A DNA stretch of 14,885 nucleotides from Pseudomonadota bacterium (GCA_043718025.1 JAYSWN010000039.1:1-14885); one strand, 5' to 3'. Positions 1 to 14,885 are shown, counted from the stretch's first letter. A program made the numbers and translations. Notes: a model not told the origin generated them from the letters alone.

Positions 1-202
1 CATGGCAGGTGGCGATCGTGATTCCACGCTCTTTCTCTTCGGGAGCCGCGTCGATCTGATCGTAACGCTTGGCTTCCGCCCACCCTTTTTTTGCTAATAC
101 CGTAGTCAATGCTGAGGTCAGCGTCGTTTTGCCATGGTCAACGTGACCGATGGTTCCCACGTTCACGTGGGGTTTTGTGCGTTCAAACTTTGCCTTTGCC
201 AT
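1..202 (-). CDS. tuf: Elongation factor Tu, 5' part (runs off the left edge)
   Basis: Manual translation from the ATG at 202 gives [67 protein letters not shown], the canonical EF-Tu N-terminus with G1 GHVDHGKT and switch I RGITI. A purine-rich SD-like GAAAGGTGAG precedes it. Absent from the ORF track because it is truncated. Confidence 0.99.
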
Positions 203-8016: not shown

Positions 8017-9522
8017 ATGACTGATCGACTTACACAATCTTTTAATGTTCGCGCTCTGACCCTAATCGCCATTTGTGTGGTGAGCGGGCAGTTTGCCTTG
8101 CAAATGTCTTCGCCGGCGATCCCGATTCTCGTTTTCCTCGTGTTGGGAGCCGCAGTTTGCTTTCTGCTTCTTCCTACTTCCGCGCTTGTGCCGTTGTACT
8201 TTTTCTATTTACTCTTCGAAGGCGCGATCAAAATATTGTCGAACTATCATCCTGTGTTGCACATTGGTAGTGACCTTGTTTTTATCGCCGTCTTCTGGAG
8301 GCTGTACCAGAGAAAAAAAACGCAACCTAATATTGCTGCATTGAGTTCTCTACAGATAGCCGACCTGCGGACCGCGGTGGTCTTCTTTTGTCTCTATTGG
8401 ACTTGGGTAGTGGTGCAATTTGCTAATCCAGTGGCTCTGGGCTTTTTGCCCTCCATAGCTGGGTTAAAACTTCATCTAATCCCCTTCTTGTTTTTTTTCA
8501 TAGTTTGTTTCTATTTGTCGGCCGACGAAATTAAGATCATCCCCCCATTTTTGCTCGGTCTCGCTGCCTTCGAGGGATTGTTTTCCATTTTCGATTGGTA
8601 TCAGGGCGTTGGATTTTTGGCGAAAATCAGCCCGCGTTATTACTCAACTTACATGACTTTTTTGCCCGGTTATCCTTACCGACCATTCGGAACCACTGCG
8701 CTGCCCGGTGCGCCGGGGGTTTGGATTTCAGTTGGGATTATCGCTCTGTTTTTGGTTGTCTACTCATTCAAAAAAAATAAGGGTGATAAACTCGAGGCCG
8801 CAGAAAAACCAAACCCATGGTGGTTTCGCTTACAGGCCGGCGTTTGGCTATACATTCCCATTGCCATCCTGACTCTGATTGTCTGTCAGGTGCGAACGAC
8901 GTTAATTAAAGCCTTGTTAATGATTTGCTTTGCGATTGCAATTCAGGGACGGCGTCAGCTGACGCTGGTATGCTTGGGAATTTTGGCGGTTGTGTTTTGG
9001 AACCAAGTCAGCTCACCAGGTAATAATGTGAATTCCGTTTCAAAAAGAGCGAGCGCATCAGATCGGTTTGATTCAGCAATCAGCCGAATACTTACCTTGC
9101 GGTCAGCCGAGACTTACAAGAATGCTCGTGGCGGAAATTGGGCTATGAATGAGCTTGGTCGTCGATCGGAAGTCACCATGACTGGCATCGGCTTATCTCG
9201 TATGTCTGCTTCGGCGGGCCCCTGGTACGCGCTGATCGCTAAAGACTCTCGTTTCGGTCCGAGCTGGTCATTTAGCGACAATTTAGCCTTAGCCGTTTTT
9301 ACTGAACTGGGAGCATTCGGCTTTATCGCGTACTTCTCGCTTCATGCGGCGATGTTTTTTTTACTGTTACGTCGCCAAAACCTTAGTGCACGACTTATCG
9401 CTATATTCTTGGTCATCACCTTGGCTTCTGGTTACGCTTCTGAGGGCATGTATTATCAGCCGGAGGCCTCACTTTTTTGGACCTTTCTCGGGATCGGCAT
9501 TCGATCGGAGTCGGCCGCATGA
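8017..9522 (+). CDS. wzy: Wzy-like polysaccharide polymerase (O-antigen ligase/polymerase superfamily)
   Basis: 501 aa with more than 10 hydrophobic segments. RPFGTTALPG loop, QVRT, a large polar loop followed by GIGL...DNLALAVFTELGAFG (Wzy_C-like pattern). Coupled by ATGA to a co-polymerase gene. Confidence 0.75.
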   Translation: MTDRLTQSFNVRALTLIAICVVSGQFALQMSSPAIPILVFLVLGAAVCFLLLPTSALVPLYFFYLLFEGAIKILSNYHPVLHIGSDLVFIAVFWRLYQRKKTQPNIAALSSLQIADLRTAVVFFCLYWTWVVVQFANPVALGFLPSIAGLKLHLIPFLFFFIVCFYLSADEIKIIPPFLLGLAAFEGLFSIFDWYQGVGFLAKISPRYYSTYMTFLPGYPYRPFGTTALPGAPGVWISVGIIALFLVVYSFKKNKGDKLEAAEKPNPWWFRLQAGVWLYIPIAILTLIVCQVRTTLIKALLMICFAIAIQGRRQLTLVCLGILAVVFWNQVSSPGNNVNSVSKRASASDRFDSAISRILTLRSAETYKNARGGNWAMNELGRRSEVTMTGIGLSRMSASAGPWYALIAKDSRFGPSWSFSDNLALAVFTELGAFGFIAYFSLHAAMFFLLLRRQNLSARLIAIFLVITLASGYASEGMYYQPEASLFWTFLGIGIRSESAA

Positions 9523-11582
9523 TTTTTTTATCTGCTCAGCGAATAGTCACTTTATTGAGAGTGCACTGGCGCTTGCTTGTTCTTTGCGCCTGTCTAAGCT
9601 CTTTTGCCTCTTTCATGTTTGGATCTCTTACCCCGTATCTCTTTCGTTCCGAAGCCATGTTGATGCTTCCGGTTCCGAAGACTATTGATCCAATGGCAAG
9701 CTTGGATAATACGGACGTGCTGCGGGTGGCGAATCTCTTCAAAAGTCCCAAGGTTCTTGCTCCCGTTGCGGAAGCACAATTGAAGCGGTATGGCGCGAAG
9801 GCAAATTTTCTCATTCTTAACTCTTGGTCTTGGTTTGATTTTACCCAGCGTTGGAATATTTTTAAGTCAAAAATGATCTATTCCTCTAAGGAGAACAGTG
9901 AGGCTCCGGATTTAGGGAATTACTCGGTCGACACGTTTGTTAGTCTGATCGCCAAGGAGATTGTGGCCGAAGCAGACCCTAGCATGAGAACGATTCGCGT
10001 AGTCTACGATGCCGGGGTACCGGAGTACGCGCAGGCCACCACTCAGCTCCTAATCGACGAGTTTATTCGGGTCCTGGCCGAAATGGAACAGCAAGAGCTA
10101 CAGCGGCAAGAAAAATACCTCCTGGGCGCAATCGATCAGCAACTTCAGTCCATTCGCGAAACCGAGGAGAGCATGCGTCTTATCGTTGAGAAACACCCCG
10201 AGCTAAGCGTTGCCGGGGGAACTGGCGGTGGGGCGGGTACTTTGGCGCAAAAGTTTTTGGAAAGACAGGAAGTTCTAAAGAAACTCGAGGGTGAATTTGA
10301 TGCCAATCGCAAATTTCTAGATTCGATTCAAGGCGACCTCTCTCAGATGTCTCAGAATCGCGGCGTGGCCAGCAAGGTAAGCCCTGAACTTTCGACAAAA
10401 TTGGCGGAAGAGATTGGCGAACTAGAATTTAAAAAGATGCAGTATCTGCAAGTTTCCGGATACGAGGAGGATCATCCCGAGATCCAAAAGATCGTTTTGC
10501 GGATTCAAACCCTAAAGAACTTGTTGGGTAGTAGCAATGGCGCCGGGAATGGGCAAGGCACCTACAAATCTCTCTTCCAGAAACGGGCTCAGATTAACGA
10601 GCGCAACAAATCGTTGGATGTCGAAAAAGAGACCGTTAGCGGCGAGATGCATCGTGAACAGAATAAATTTCGTGAGCTGGTAAAGCGCAATTTTGACCTT
10701 GATTCTTTAATGAGAAATCTCAACGTAAATGTGACCATCACTGGAGAATTGTACCGTGAACTTCAGAAAGCACGGTTAAATATGGCCGGGGCGCAGGGAA
10801 AAGCCAGCGTATTGATGGCGCCTTCACTTTCGGTGCACGCCAGCAACATCTCGGTAAAGAAGCGTACCTTTTTTGGATTCGTCATTGGCATTGGCATCGC
10901 CATCTCTCTGCTTCTATTATTTGACCTTTTTTCCCCCATTCTTTTGCATGAAGATGACTTTGTCTGTTTTGGTGAAAAAGTATTTGGCCCTTTCCGTGGC
11001 ACCGAACGTGGAAAGCATCAACTTTTTTCCTGGTTTTCGGCAATGCGAATGGAAAAGGCAAAGCGCAATGGAGGGATCTCGGTTCGGCTAACCGTAGGTC
11101 TATTAGGGCAAAGCGACCACCGGCGTGCCTGGGAACCTTTTATTCATAGCTCGCTTCGCGAAATGACCGCAAAGGGTGAGAAAATTGGGATTGTGGTAGT
11201 GCGCGATCCCGAAGGATGGGAAGAGCGTTTTGATTGGGGATTGAGCGAAAGCGCCGTGGAAGAATTGATTATTGACGATGTTCCCAACACACTCGGGAGC
11301 AAAGTGGCTGAGATGCAAAAGCGGTTTGAGTACGTATTCGTTATCATGAACGAGAACCGCTCGGGCATTCCGGTAGAGACTTATCTTGAAGAACACACCG
11401 ATCTTACGCTGATTGTTTCGCAGCTGGGGATCAGCTCCTTAAAGACGGTACGAAAGCTCTCGTTGATGATGCCCGACGTTCTAAAAAAGGGGCATCTCGT
11501 GCTTGCGCCTTACCACGTGGCAAATCGCAACCCGTTTTCAAAACTCATTTCAGATAGATTGTTCCCAAAAAAGGCGGCCTAG
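9519..11582 (+). CDS. wzc: Wzc/GumC-like polysaccharide co-polymerase with a degenerate C-terminal BY-kinase-like domain
   Basis: ATG 9519 overlaps the wzy stop. N-terminal LLRVHWRLLVL-TM-TPYLFRSEAML (Wzz-like), long coiled-coil region with YEEDHPEI (Y..dHP motif), LYREL, second TM (FFGFVIGIGIAISLLLLF), then a cytoplasmic alpha/beta domain of about 215 aa. Confidence 0.85.
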   Translation: MIFLSAQRIVTLLRVHWRLLVLCACLSSFASFMFGSLTPYLFRSEAMLMLPVPKTIDPMASLDNTDVLRVANLFKSPKVLAPVAEAQLKRYGAKANFLILNSWSWFDFTQRWNIFKSKMIYSSKENSEAPDLGNYSVDTFVSLIAKEIVAEADPSMRTIRVVYDAGVPEYAQATTQLLIDEFIRVLAEMEQQELQRQEKYLLGAIDQQLQSIRETEESMRLIVEKHPELSVAGGTGGGAGTLAQKFLERQEVLKKLEGEFDANRKFLDSIQGDLSQMSQNRGVASKVSPELSTKLAEEIGELEFKKMQYLQVSGYEEDHPEIQKIVLRIQTLKNLLGSSNGAGNGQGTYKSLFQKRAQINERNKSLDVEKETVSGEMHREQNKFRELVKRNFDLDSLMRNLNVNVTITGELYRELQKARLNMAGAQGKASVLMAPSLSVHASNISVKKRTFFGFVIGIGIAISLLLLFDLFSPILLHEDDFVCFGEKVFGPFRGTERGKHQLFSWFSAMRMEKAKRNGGISVRLTVGLLGQSDHRRAWEPFIHSSLREMTAKGEKIGIVVVRDPEGWEERFDWGLSESAVEELIIDDVPNTLGSKVAEMQKRFEYVFVIMNENRSGIPVETYLEEHTDLTLIVSQLGISSLKTVRKLSLMMPDVLKKGHLVLAPYHVANRNPFSKLISDRLFPKKAA

Positions 11583-11595
11583 TAATAAGTGTGGA

Positions 11596-12849
11596 TCACC
11601 GCTGAATTCTGCGCGGGGCAACCGGATGTTCAGCTACGATTTTCGTAGTCATTTCGGCGGTCTTGAAAGTTGGAGCGCGATGGCGATTGTGGCTCGCGCC
11701 AATTTTTACGACTTGGGCGCTGCTCGTCAGGGCAGAGTAGACGTCAAAGATCTGGTCGACGCAGGTGCTGAGTTCGTAGTTTTTCGTTACACGCGAAAGA
11801 GCGTTGGCGGAAAAGGCGGCGCGCATATTCGGGTTCTCATGAATCTTGATCGCGGCTGCGGCAATGGCCGTAGCGCTGCCCACCGGGACCGTAAATCCTG
11901 ATTCGCCGTTAACGCTAACTTCAGCAACGCCGCTTCCTTCAATACTACAATTAATAACGGGTAGGCCTGCGGCCATGGCCTCAATTTGGATGATTCCAAA
12001 AGCCTCTGCACGGTTTATGGACGGTAGCCAAAGCGCGGTGGCCGCCATGAAATAGGGCAATAGATCAGCTTGGAAACCTAAAAAGTGGACGCGATCGGAA
12101 ATGCCGTGTCTTTCGCAAAGGCGGCGCAATCGATCTCGTTCTGGTCCGTCGCCTAAAATGAGGAGTTGGCCAGGGGCCTCCTTCATTGCTTGAATGGCAA
12201 ATTGAATTCCTTTGTATGGAACTAGACGAGAGCAGGTTATCCACAGGGGAGAGCCATAGTGCTTTCGGATCTCCTCACTCTGTTGAATTTGCATCGGCGT
12301 CGGATTTCCGATTTTTTCCGTGGGAATGCCTAGCGGTACGACGGTGACTCTATCTTTAAAGCGGCGCAGGAGGGGGGAACTGTTGCGGTAGGATTCACTC
12401 GTGGCGAGAATACGGTCCACCGAGGAATAGAAATAGTTTTCGATTGGGCTAAAGAAGAGGCCACGCAACGGCTGGTTCACGTGATCGCTCTGGTAGGTGA
12501 CTACTACCGGAATGCGCGGGAGGCGATTGGTAAATTGTGCAATCGCGTAGGACAAGATCATCGATGGATTGGGAACTTGCAGATGAAAAATGTCGGCGTT
12601 CGAGTCAACGATCGCTTTCGTGAGTTCCGCAACGTAGGCCAGTCTTGCAAAGTTGTAATTGACCCTAAAGCGAAAAATTTTCACGCCACCATCCATAAAA
12701 ATTTCGGTGGGTTGGCCGACCTGATGATTGAAACAAAAAACCTGAACTTGATGGCCGGCTTTGGCTTGGGCGAGTGCCATGGTGCGCAGATGCGTCTCGA
12801 TGCCGCCGGCCGCAGGGTGATAGTATTTTCCTAGATGGGTGATTTTCAG
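11596..12849 (-). CDS. Glycosyltransferase family 4; probable CTG start at 12849 (ORF track uses ATG 12780)
   Basis: Motifs SRLVPYKG, LGDGPER, LPSINRAEAFGIIQIEAMAAGLPVI, NGESGFTV. The in-frame upstream extension (L/M)KITHLGKYYHPAAGGIETHL is the typical GT4 first strand plus GG loop, with SD GAGG 5 nt before the CTG. Confidence 0.92.
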   Translation of the reverse strand: MKITHLGKYYHPAAGGIETHLRTMALAQAKAGHQVQVFCFNHQVGQPTEIFMDGGVKIFRFRVNYNFARLAYVAELTKAIVDSNADIFHLQVPNPSMILSYAIAQFTNRLPRIPVVVTYQSDHVNQPLRGLFFSPIENYFYSSVDRILATSESYRNSSPLLRRFKDRVTVVPLGIPTEKIGNPTPMQIQQSEEIRKHYGSPLWITCSRLVPYKGIQFAIQAMKEAPGQLLILGDGPERDRLRRLCERHGISDRVHFLGFQADLLPYFMAATALWLPSINRAEAFGIIQIEAMAAGLPVINCSIEGSGVAEVSVNGESGFTVPVGSATAIAAAAIKIHENPNMRAAFSANALSRVTKNYELSTCVDQIFDVYSALTSSAQVVKIGASHNRHRAPTFKTAEMTTKIVAEHPVAPRRIQR

Positions 12850-12864
12850 ACAGACCTCTCGTCG

Positions 12865-13407
12865 TTAGTGTGAGCGGAGAATGAGAAAGAGCGAAAGGCT
12901 TGCCGTGATGGTTCCTAGAATGCTTCCGTAAACGGAAAGGAATCTTAAAAAATTATCGGTTTTAGGGGGAGAATTAAAGTGAATGATGTCGCCGTTTTGT
13001 AAGGGAAACGAGCGGTAGTCGGGGCGATCAATCATTTCTCGGCCTTCAATTGTCAGTAGCGACGGTTTGTCTTTTCTCACTGGGCTTGCCTCTTGAGTGG
13101 CCGTCAAGGAAATGACGGTTTTGTCGAACGAGCCGGAGGGGCCCCCGGTTAGGCCCATCAGATCCATCATTGTGGCATTGTCGGGTAAATAAAAAATTCC
13201 GGTGATAGGAGAATCCCCCCATACCTGTACTTTAATTAAGAATCTATTTTCTCGGTTGGAAGAATAGTGCTCGCGAAGGGAAGAGCGGATGGCGCTTGAG
13301 GAAAACGACTCTTCCTGAGCCTTGGCCACCGGCGACATGACGAGCAAAAAACAGATTAGCTGCATAAAACTACGCACGAAAAAAGAGGTTTCAGTATTTG
13401 TTTTCAT
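12865..13407 (-). CDS. Small secreted SLBB (beta-grasp) protein with a C-terminal hydrophobic helix; truncated Wza/OPX- or GfcC-like export protein (start ATG 13407 or 13365)
   Basis: Signal peptide LICFLLVMSPVAKA|QE. SLBB pattern IKVQVWGDSPITGIFYLPDNATMMDLMGLTGG...LQNGDIIHF. C-terminal NFLRFLSVYGSILGTITASLSLFLIL. The GTG at 13452 is disfavoured because it lies in a -10-like element. Confidence 0.78.
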   Translation of the reverse strand: MKTNTETSFFVRSFMQLICFLLVMSPVAKAQEESFSSSAIRSSLREHYSSNRENRFLIKVQVWGDSPITGIFYLPDNATMMDLMGLTGGPSGSFDKTVISLTATQEASPVRKDKPSLLTIEGREMIDRPDYRSFPLQNGDIIHFNSPPKTDNFLRFLSVYGSILGTITASLSLFLILRSH

Positions 13408-13442
13408 GGTGGTTTTGAATTTGGGGTAACGGCTATGTGTAA

Positions 13443-13451
13443 ATTCTATCA
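13443..13451 (-). promoter_or_regulatory. Candidate extended -10 promoter for the SLBB-GT4 operon
   Basis: Minus strand reads TG-A-TAGAAT, about 35 nt upstream of ATG 13407. Confidence 0.5.
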
Positions 13452-13480
13452 CGAGTGCCTGGTTCGGATAACCCGACCTC

Positions 13481-13489
13481 TGATATAAT
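13481..13489 (+). promoter_or_regulatory. Candidate extended -10 sigma70 promoter for the CDS at 13540
   Basis: Perfect TG-A-TATAAT, 50 nt upstream of ATG 13540. No clear -35. Confidence 0.6.
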
Positions 13490-13539
13490 TTGAAGTATTC
13501 GGCTTTTACCCGTAGCCCCTTCTTTCAGAAATACCACCT

Positions 13540-14885
13540 ATGCGAAATTCATCCTTTTTACTTTTATTCTTTTTCTTAACGACTCAGGCTTTCGGCATCA
13601 CCTTTTTTGAAAGAAATTCGCTGTCACTTCAAAGCATTTCCGACATACCAGTTCCGGTGCCGCCGCCTAGTGATTCGGTGCCCCAGCAAGACGCTGGCCT
13701 AAATTCAGCTCCGGGTGTGAATGATGGTTATCAAGGCACTCCCGAAACACCCGGTCGTACCGGTGAAATTGGTGGGGGAAACGGGGGCGAGGGCAACGAG
13801 CCGGGACGTGGCGACGCGGCTGGTCAAGAGGGAGCCCGTGAACAAGAAATTAGAACTCGTCAGGGCGAATCCAAAGAGCGCGAAACCCGCGAAGGTGAGT
13901 CAAAAGAGCGCGAAACCCGCGAAGGCGAATCCAAAGAGCGCGAAACCCGCGAAGGCGAATCCAAGGAGCGCGAAACCCGCGAAGGCGAATCCAAGGAGCG
14001 CGAAACTCGCGATAAGAACGATAGGATAAAGGATAGAAACGATCGCGAAGAACGCGATGGCGAAAAGAATAAGCAAAAAAATGATGCAAAACCGAAGAAG
14101 GGCGTAAAACCGGATGGCGCAAAGCCGTCTAAGGACAATGGCGACGGGCGGTTTTTCGAACGCAGCGGTTCTAATTCCGATTATAGGGAAGTTGCCCGTC
14201 TGGCCGAAGGCCCCTCCGGCTCGGTGTCCGACATGCCCAATAAAATTAATCGCCCGCGCACGCACGAGGCCCCTTTGCCCTACTGGCCAATTGCGGCGAC
14301 CACCATCGGTACCCCGAGTGCGCACGGTGCCGACTGGACCGACGTGTTCGCCGGCATCGGCGTGCAAAATCGGGCCCGTTACGGAACGTTGGCCAATAGC
14401 ACCGCCATTGTCGGTTTAGGGTTTGGCGATGCGCGAAAAAATGTGGGCCTTGAAATGGGTATTTCAAGTTTCGGCCTGATTCGCCACGGCCTACCCTTCA
14501 CCACCGGCGGCGTCAGTTTGAAGTTGCACCACTATTTTCAGGATTGGGCTCTGGGCGTCGCCGCCGGTTATGAAAATGCCATTTACTGGGGATCGCCCGA
14601 TAGCGGACAGAGTTTTTTCATGGTGTTTTCGAAGTACATTCAGCTGGGCCAGGGCTCAAAGCACGAACCCTTTCGTACGCTATTTATTCACTTCGGGTTG
14701 GGCGATGGCCGTTTCCGTAACGAGGGGAGTGTGATGGCCGGCCGCAACTCGATTAGTCCCTTTGTTTCGATGGCCCTGCGGGTCGCCGACCCTATCAATA
14801 TGATTGCCAACTGGACCGGTTCGGATCTGTCTTTGGGCATTTCTACAACCCCGTTTCGTTCCACCCCCATCGGTGTGGGCATCTC
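13540..14885 (+). CDS. Secreted protein: signal peptide, long disordered repeat region and probable outer-membrane beta-barrel (3' truncated by the window)
   Basis: Manual translation is open for 448 codons to the edge. MRNSSFLLLFFFLTTQAFG signal peptide; P/G-rich then highly charged linker; from about 14290 TPSAHGADWTDVFAGIGVQNRARY..AIVGLGFGDARKNVGLEMG..GGVSLKLHHYF..LGVAAGYEN..LFIHFGLGDGRFR..MIANWTGSDLSLGISTTPF (alternating Gly/aromatic amphipathic strands). Variation among the repeat copies is synonymous in this frame. Confidence 0.88.
   Translation, partial: MRNSSFLLLFFFLTTQAFGITFFERNSLSLQSISDIPVPVPPPSDSVPQQDAGLNSAPGVNDGYQGTPETPGRTGEIGGGNGGEGNEPGRGDAAGQEGAREQEIRTRQGESKERETREGESKERETREGESKERETREGESKERETREGESKERETRDKNDRIKDRNDREERDGEKNKQKNDAKPKKGVKPDGAKPSKDNGDGRFFERSGSNSDYREVARLAEGPSGSVSDMPNKINRPRTHEAPLPYWPIAATTIGTPSAHGADWTDVFAGIGVQNRARYGTLANSTAIVGLGFGDARKNVGLEMGISSFGLIRHGLPFTTGGVSLKLHHYFQDWALGVAAGYENAIYWGSPDSGQSFFMVFSKYIQLGQGSKHEPFRTLFIHFGLGDGRFRNEGSVMAGRNSISPFVSMALRVADPINMIANWTGSDLSLGISTTPFRSTPIGVGI
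13861..14010 (+). repeat. Coding tandem repeat, 5 x 30 bp, encoding (E/Q)GESKERETR
   Basis: Units start at 13861, 13891, 13921, 13951 and 13981; consensus GAAGGCGAATCCAARGAGCGCGAAACCCGC; no spacers. A degenerate unit EGAREQEIRTR precedes them. Confidence 0.97.

Follow-up and report, generated by a model that had tools for sequence, protein, structure and literature searches.

The window analysed here, a whole stretch of 14,885 nt from a Pseudomonadota bacterium (GCA_043718025.1, JAYSWN010000039.1:1-14885), is the entire contig C167 of a genome that we call G000 (4.14 Mb, 234 contigs, 92.4% complete). Its genes include three GT4 glycosyltransferases, a nucleotidyltransferase, an epimerase, a Wzy-like gene and a Wzc-type gene. 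Towards its end two genes diverge, one for a secreted beta-barrel and one for a 180-residue secreted protein that we call mini-OPX, a working name for this protein and its family, which resemble proteins for polysaccharide export at the outer membrane (OPX proteins) such as Escherichia coli Wza and lack their Poly_export domain (PES, PF02563). The small protein, rather than the barrel, is the central finding: judged by its sequence and predicted structure it is likely a new form of OPX-like protein, and likely a minimal polysaccharide exit pore.

Architecture of the mini-OPX protein

The mini-OPX reading frame encodes 180 residues from an ATG at 13407, which coincides with the start of a 71%-identical homologue (P0004); a GTG start would give 195 residues. 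The original prediction described a secreted protein of about 170–180 residues with no lipobox, one SLBB domain, a C-terminal helix and no room for a PES domain, and this description is borne out. In the AlphaFold model (pLDDT 87.7) a signal helix precedes a beta-grasp domain, a further helix follows at the C-terminus, and no space is left for PES. Taken alone, the window protein has no Pfam SLBB match and no Pfam match of note. A search with it against 1.84 billion representative sequences returned 87 matches, about 60 of them proteins of 150–190 residues mostly aligned over much of their length, the remainder larger multi-repeat proteins aligned only over their central domain. Alignment A1 comprises 65 short mini-OPX proteins, with the long matches and a few fragments excluded. 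SLBB (PF10531) is matched by 47 of these 65 members, and only SLBB and SLBB_2 families are matched across the set. Poly_export has no match in mini-OPX, in the 65 family members or in G000, and a lipobox pattern is found in 0/64 family members and in 0/84 short matches from the Ignavibacteria-type loci described below.

The best PDB sequence matches of the mini-OPX profile are WzaB (9n9a) and Wza (2j58), and Wza accounts for the top five Foldseek matches of the model. Superposed with VIA-align, the SLBB domain fits Wza D2 (residues 172–252) with a Z-score of 9.2 and a root-mean-square deviation (rmsd) of 2.2 Å over 78 residues, and the SLBB domain with part of the helix fits Wza residues 253–369 (Z 8.4, rmsd 5.7 Å). 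SLBB domains of NuoF tie with Wza as fold matches (Z 8.5–8.7), and fold alone is therefore no proof of function. Complex prediction with four copies of residues 41–180 gave scores of 0.48, 0.21 and 0.24 against a mark of 0.42, no verdict either way.

Atlas look-alikes of 164–191 residues belong mostly to Ignavibacteriota, Fidelibacterota and Rhodothermota, and members in Bdellovibrio bacteriovorus (XGC80332.1), B. reynosensis and Bacteriovorax stolpii carry “SLBB domain-containing protein” as their sole annotation. A plasmid search with a family member and a genome scan with P0086 gave no match. A 450-residue frame in one locus (L059), considered as a split or fused form, proved to be an upstream false start.

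Features of the mini-OPX end of the window and of the adjoining polysaccharide genes
Position	Strand	Feature	Basis
8017..9522	+	Wzy/O-antigen-ligase-like membrane protein	PF04932, E 3.9e-4, below cut-off
9519..11582	+	Polysaccharide co-polymerase of Wzc type, with two membrane helices, a periplasmic part of ~412 aa whose helical arms are lengthened, and a degenerate kinase region	TIGR03007, E 1.9e-13, below cut-off
11596..12780	-	Same-strand GT4 glycosyltransferase, next gene downstream of mini-OPX	
12865..13407	-	Mini-OPX gene (180 aa, no PES), coding for a signal peptide, a single SLBB domain and a membrane helix at the C-terminus	
13321..13407	-	Signal peptide, aa 1–29, likely cut by signal peptidase I at A-K-A|Q	By-eye reading
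12967..13239	-	SLBB beta-grasp domain, aa 57–147	AlphaFold model and superposition
12874..12954	-	C-terminal helix, aa 152–178; small-residue stripe 158, 161/162, 165, 168/169, basic tail; candidate roles are helix of a pore and anchor in the inner membrane	AlphaFold model, alignment
13408..13539	.	Intergenic region of 132 nt that separates the divergent start codons	
13540..14885	+	Gene for a secreted protein, cut by the contig end: a signal peptide, then a charged linker of low complexity, then from ~14263 an outer-membrane barrel predicted to have 12 strands and to resemble FapF/KdgM	

Gene neighbourhood and distribution of the family

The association with polysaccharide genes was followed in 301 genomes of the phylum, which we take to be Bdellovibrionota since its proteins bear Bdellovibrio and Bacteriovorax names. 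Regions of about 10 kb on each side were taken around 40 of the stronger matches, of which 39 were counted (L063 was dropped, as its mini-OPX gene was not called); genes were labelled with local profiles, and representatives were checked separately. Of these phylum loci, 22 have wzc next to the mini-OPX gene and 27 have it somewhere within about 10 kb; 10 have a wzy-like gene as direct neighbour, and 38 carry some polysaccharide marker. Scanning with an Ignavibacteria alignment yielded a further 64 loci, and the 54 that span 6 kb or more and contain a short member, mostly from Ignavibacteria, were counted; here wzc, detected mostly with E. coli Wzc as query, adjoins in 42, and many loci hold two mini-OPX/wzc pairs. 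The expected co-occurrence with wzc and wzy was thus recovered. A PES gene is present in four of the 54 loci, in the order mini-OPX, wzc, long PES-bearing OPX, short co-polymerase, so that each exporter-type gene has a co-polymerase of its own. Among the features by which OPX proteins are recognised, the family therefore has the SLBB domain and the setting in a polysaccharide locus with a co-polymerase, and lacks PES. It fails the formal OPX test on this last point, and its sequence features nonetheless suggest a PES-less, non-lipidated protein that most likely works like an OPX.

Across the phylum set, A1 matched 157 genomes. We counted as full-length the 130 whose best E-value was 1e-17 or better; 21 of the 27 weaker rows dropped carry a Poly_export match and are therefore probably ordinary OPX proteins. 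Poly_export is detectable in 35 of the 301 genomes and the periplasmic profile of Wzc in 123. No Poly_export was detectable in 122 of the 130 mini-positive genomes, leaving 8/130 with it, as against 27/171 of the others, and the 123 Wzc-positive genomes divide into 100 with mini-OPX only, 14 with Poly_export only, 5 with both and 4 with neither. Many of the genomes are incomplete, related genomes are not independent counts, and the sequences behind the Wzc profile came from mini-OPX loci; P values for co-occurrence are therefore overstated. Strict mutual exclusion between mini-OPX and PES was considered and rejected: it is partial in the phylum and fails in five Ignavibacteria-type genomes.

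A canonical wza just outside the window was also sought. None came to light in G000 (92.4% complete), either with Poly_export or with a small home-made PES profile, as the original prediction required. The barrel gene continues to ThiF/TatD-type genes on contig C219, genes also present in loci L054 and L124, and the other end of the window joins C171. At that end (window 1-202) the contig shares 98 nt with the end of C171, and bases 130-202 match the reverse strand of the C171 end, which suggests an inverted repeat or an assembly artefact.

G000 carries a second PES-less mini-OPX paralogue (C119; L224:10005-10544, plus strand), also of 180 residues and with an SLBB match, between pepA and groEL and with no polysaccharide gene beside it. 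It also carries a second, stand-alone Wzc-type gene (C190; L223:8054-10183, minus strand), whose product has a Walker A motif, carries tyrosines close to its C-terminus and is a possible partner of that paralogue.

The location of this second copy, and that of mini-OPX in some complete genomes, in a small cluster of wzy-like, MFS and co-polymerase genes without glycosyltransferases, are what would be expected if mini-OPX were a relic, or an SLBB protein of general use in the envelope that accompanies polysaccharide loci and is dispensable for export. We regard this as very improbable, given that two phyla or more share the architecture and the direct adjacency to wzc, and that G000 has two mini-OPX genes and two Wzc-type genes. 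In nine loci (L079-L082, L085-L087, L089, L090) the gene immediately after mini-OPX is a Wzy_C gene, and the small cluster that they form part of has no glycosyltransferases; six of the nine loci include a co-polymerase, of 404–488 residues and with no kinase domain. Overall, we consider it very probable that mini-OPX belongs to Wzc-coupled polysaccharide export.

The Wzc partner

The original prediction also called the window Wzc kinase-dead. The protein itself fits this, having no Walker A motif and no tyrosine cluster, and thus not qualifying as a BY-kinase; only its periplasmic part fits a chain-length-determinant model. As a feature of the module the claim does not hold, since a Walker A motif is found in 51/56 Wzc proteins of the Ignavibacteria-type loci, and also in the second Wzc of G000.

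The periplasmic arms are more informative. According to the accessible part of PMC12881504, residues K332, Y334, T335 and H338 at the arm tip of E. coli Wzc bind Wza D1, and mutation of the contact region 332–338 abolishes export. Compared with E. coli Wzc, the profile of the mini-OPX partners has about 52 and 46 extra columns (~98) flanking residues 336–341, and a shorter jellyroll region. If helical, the extra residues would provide about 70 Å more reach, near the height of the domains missing from mini-OPX, and a longer reach fits a shorter outer-membrane partner.

The C-terminal helix

The C-terminal helix bears on the position of mini-OPX in the envelope. It is conserved, and in it small or polar residues recur at 158 (92%), 161 (95%) and 165 (98%), and also at 168 and 169, with hydrophobic residues between. 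This small-residue stripe suggests helix–helix assembly. We estimated apparent insertion energies (dG_app), as approximate values: the median for the family is -0.06 kcal/mol, with 34/65 members below zero and the window protein at +0.29, compared with -1.7 for the second transmembrane helix (TM2) of Wzc (27/27 below zero) and +4.9 for E. coli Wza D4. As reported in the accessible portion of PMC11845990, outer-membrane OPX helices have positive dG and inner-membrane anchors negative dG. With its median near zero the mini-OPX helix lies between the two classes, at the borderline of inner and outer membrane, and insertion energy does not tell the two locations apart. The Wza_C Pfam family has no match among the 65 members.

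These properties bring in an alternative in which the helix anchors mini-OPX to the inner membrane and the SLBB domain projects into the periplasm; the protein would then assist Wzy/Wzc by binding glycan or as a scaffold, and the polymer stays on the envelope or leaves by another outer-membrane exit. A borderline-favourable insertion energy, a low hydrophobic moment (0.15 versus 0.38 for Wza D4), a net positive tail in 56/64 members and the lack of a lipobox would all suit such an anchor, as would the loci in which a wzy-like gene adjoins (10/39), where several co-polymerases are shorter and without a kinase domain. True inner-membrane helices of the same loci, however, insert at clearly lower energies, as the Wzc TM2 values indicate, and the conserved small-residue stripe points to assembly of helices. 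Furthermore, the mini-OPX gene holds the wza position directly beside wzc, and an inner-membrane location would leave the long Wzc arms without an identified outer-membrane partner in about 100 genomes. On balance we think an inner-membrane anchor unlikely, if still the strongest competitor of an outer-membrane pore.

The divergent beta-barrel gene

The barrel gene starts 132 nt from mini-OPX and runs off the contig, its last residues being encoded on C219. As anticipated, the divergent neighbour is a beta-barrel: the model of a 73%-identical homologue (P0096; pLDDT 89) has 12 strands, and its fold matches are FapF (Z 17.2), KdgM (16.4) and COG4313 (16.0), with rmsd of 2.3–3.1 Å and 7–12% identity. 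The barrel domain has no Pfam match and no PDB sequence match, and its relatives are hypothetical proteins, many of them cyanobacterial. PF06082 (YjbH) has no match in G000 or in 39 barrel relatives, and this is a single barrel, not a double one; an atlas look-alike to a YjbH cluster at 0.92 is a lead only. The supposed shared promoter stands as far as the divergent arrangement and the short gap are concerned, and no sigma-70-like site was found in the 132-nt region.

Barrel genes are enriched at polysaccharide loci, as had been expected: markers occur in 14/23 phylum barrel loci (in one of the 14 the marker is probably mraY, with Mur ligase genes around it) and in 23/40 metagenome barrel loci of at least 5 kb (several of the 40 being near-duplicates), against 17–20% of random G000 windows. 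The original prediction had named three outcomes that would count against it, a fold other than a barrel, a lack of this enrichment and a canonical wza close by, and none of them was observed.

The channel that it proposed is nevertheless not what the wider survey supports. In that proposal, as weighed here, the mini-SLBB protein, the 12-stranded barrel as outer-membrane pore and a kinase-dead Wzc form a composite channel, at least in the family of the window. The divergent arrangement is kept in a second genome (G002), the barrel is over-represented in mini-positive genomes by single-protein search (18/130 versus 5/171, nearly all in one family), its loci carry the polysaccharide markers just described, and KdgM/NanC-type 12-stranded porins are among its closest folds. 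Against this, the barrel accompanies mini-OPX in few genomes. Within the 301 genomes it is detected in 23 by single-protein search and in 22 by profile, and only 17 of the 130 mini-positive genomes have it, with none found in the other 113. It is present in 3/39 phylum mini-OPX loci and 0/54 Ignavibacteria-type loci, and conversely only 6/23 phylum barrel loci contain a mini-OPX gene. The barrel also adjoins complete PES-bearing OPX genes with a C-terminal helix of their own: an SLBB gene is present in 12/40 metagenome barrel loci, and the seven checked with Pfam are all complete PES-bearing OPX proteins. Its best fold match, FapF, corresponds to the N-terminal barrel of YjbH/GfcD and not to the C-terminal PgaA-like polymer barrel, according to the accessible text of Saidi et al. 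(bioRxiv 10.1101/2022.02.11.480155). Similarly, in the accessible text of PMC9601211, known polymer barrels have 16–18 strands rather than 12, and short OPX proteins coupled to a barrel lack D4 or any C-terminal membrane helix, which mini-OPX has. A dedicated composite channel is thus improbable.

A further point against it is that the barrel has a recurring partner of another kind. Most barrel genes adjoin a gene for a secreted protein of about 200–290 residues of no known family, either after the barrel (L146, L147, L151-L153, L163, L169, L185, L186, L190, L191, L205) or before it (L129-L134, L136, L139, L140, L075). Many of the downstream partners begin with a G-N-Q-S-D-type motif, which also starts CHAT-domain proteins after the barrel in L167, L170, L171 and L173. 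Upstream partners, found in the family of the window, and downstream partners, found in other loci, show weak homology (best E ~1e-3, in a set of a dozen sequences). The barrel and its secreted partner may form an undescribed two-gene secretion or surface-display module. In one locus (L135:9016-10308) the N-terminal part of a 431-residue barrel protein resembles, by eye, a fused partner protein. The genus of the window lacks the separate partner, and its barrel begins instead with a long, charged extension at the N-terminus; at window positions 13860-14010 this extension is encoded by about five copies of a 30-nt repeat specifying a charged decapeptide, and the G002 homologue has a different charged repeat. 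We consider the barrel likely to be an accessory that polysaccharide loci may or may not have and that acts together with a secreted partner of its own, and not a required exit; a local role in the family of the window is possible.

Other recognised types of barrel were considered as family-wide partners and rejected. A Wzi-like barrel occurs in 46/301 genomes, with 0/36 in family f8 and 14/14 in the PES-bearing family f11, and a BBP2_2 barrel in 0/5 genomes. Three near-complete genomes with mini-OPX and Wzc (G222, G140, G234) have no match to the window-type barrel, BBP2_2 or Wzi. G000 itself encodes a Wzi-like barrel (C73:6220-7704; PF14052 over the cut-off), with no polysaccharide neighbours by eye.

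A proposed export mechanism

We propose that mini-OPX is a self-contained helical outer-membrane pore that fills the OPX slot of the Wzx/Wzy pathway, probably without a barrel, and we put the probability of this at roughly 0.5. The protein would be exported by Sec, lose its signal peptide and oligomerise into a ring. Its C-terminal helices would then insert into the outer membrane, with the small residues facing the lumen or neighbouring helices, and the SLBB ring would take over from the missing D1 as the docking site for the tips of the Wzc arms. The polymer would leave through the mini-OPX pore, with the barrel as an optional accessory. In favour of this reading we count the 100 Wzc-positive genomes with mini-OPX and no Poly_export, the adjacency to wzc and wzy-like genes, the separate co-polymerase for each exporter-type gene, the fold close to Wza/WzaB, the longer arms of the partner Wzc, the small-residue face of the helix, the PES-bearing bridging proteins described below and the three near-complete genomes without a match to the barrels searched for.

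Several observations weigh against such a pore. With respect to the partner, 25/130 mini-positive genomes have no Wzc match (the profile also missed the second Wzc of G000), and the origin of that profile inflates the co-occurrence of mini-OPX and Wzc. In some partner Wzc proteins the periplasmic part is no longer than about 335 residues, and long arms (387–442 residues) also occur beside PES-bearing OPX genes. PES proteins are encoded elsewhere in 5/5 Ignavibacteria-type genomes checked, so that exclusion is not general. As PES is the Wzc-docking surface in E. coli, mini-OPX would need a replacement interface. With respect to the membrane, the helix is far more hydrophobic than Wza D4 (-0.06 at the median versus +4.9) and has a basic end, like inner-membrane anchors. 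Finally, lipidation is described as important for outer-membrane integration of Wza (accessible part of PMC9601211) and as required for WzaB function (accessible part of PMC12819527), and a non-lipidated helical mini-OPX would need another route to the outer membrane.

If the outer-membrane pore is correct, mini-OPX would represent a fourth class of polysaccharide exporter, a broader proposal that we make somewhat more tentatively: a mature protein of about 150 residues, without PES or lipid anchor, that forms a single beta-grasp ring and crosses the outer membrane as an alpha-helical pore. It would reach that membrane by another route and meet the lengthened Wzc arms through a new interface. 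Bdellovibrionota would rely mainly on this form of OPX, which would also be common in Ignavibacteria and related phyla.

Relation to known exporters

Among described systems, the closest structural matches are with the class 1 OPX Wza of E. coli (PDB 2J58; Wza–Wzc 9R60 series), in which an SLBB domain is likewise followed by a C-terminal helix and the gene lies beside wzc. Mini-OPX differs in its size (180 versus 379 residues), in having no PES/D1, one SLBB domain instead of two and no lipobox, and in a helix that is much more hydrophobic and less amphipathic than D4. Class 3 (D1D2) OPX proteins that work with an 18-stranded barrel, such as Myxococcus EpsY/EpsX and WzaB/WzpB, are also short, with one SLBB domain and a long-armed co-polymerase, and in the window a barrel gene lies next door. 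However, class 3 proteins keep PES, are mostly lipoproteins and have no C-terminal helix, so that mini-OPX is their mirror image, and the window barrel has 12 strands, not 18, and is absent from most mini-OPX genomes.

GfcC of the E. coli group 4 capsule resembles mini-OPX as a stand-alone beta-grasp protein with a D4-like helix (Z 7.9, 8% identity), but has two beta-grasp domains and works beside a full OPX, GfcE. The window barrel is FapF-like, as is the N-terminal half of YjbH/GfcD, without the second, PgaA-like barrel. Also comparable is a set of 199–239-residue OPX proteins with PES, SLBB and helix (L158, L185, L186, L190, L201), which share with mini-OPX the lack of an obvious lipobox (by eye), the single SLBB domain and a hydrophobic helix with estimated dG of -0.5 to +1.9, near that of mini-OPX, and which lie beside wzc in L185, L186 and L190. 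They differ in keeping Poly_export, and their sequences make them a plausible bridging form from which mini-OPX could have arisen by loss of PES.

A full-text literature search, which covered few subscription journals, gave no description of the mini-OPX family, although supplementary tables of surveys could bear on the point. In their accessible text, Saidi et al. give Poly_export as common to all OPX proteins and Schwabe et al. gather OPX candidates with PF02563; the accessible text of the paper describing the SLBB superfamily (PMC1796856) does not mention a PES-less exporter. Surveys that rely on PES/PF02563 would not see the mini-OPX family, and Bdellovibrio-type genomes would appear in them with Wzc and without an exporter.

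The family, as far as sequence and models allow, keeps one beta-grasp domain and the C-terminal helix of Wza, without the domain that defines OPX proteins or a lipid anchor. If the proposed pore is real, PES and lipidation would both be dispensable for export, which bears on how helical proteins are routed to the outer membrane and on what is needed for docking to Wzc. Mini-OPX genes are widespread beside co-polymerase genes in predatory Bdellovibrionota and in Ignavibacteria, and cultured members make the question testable.

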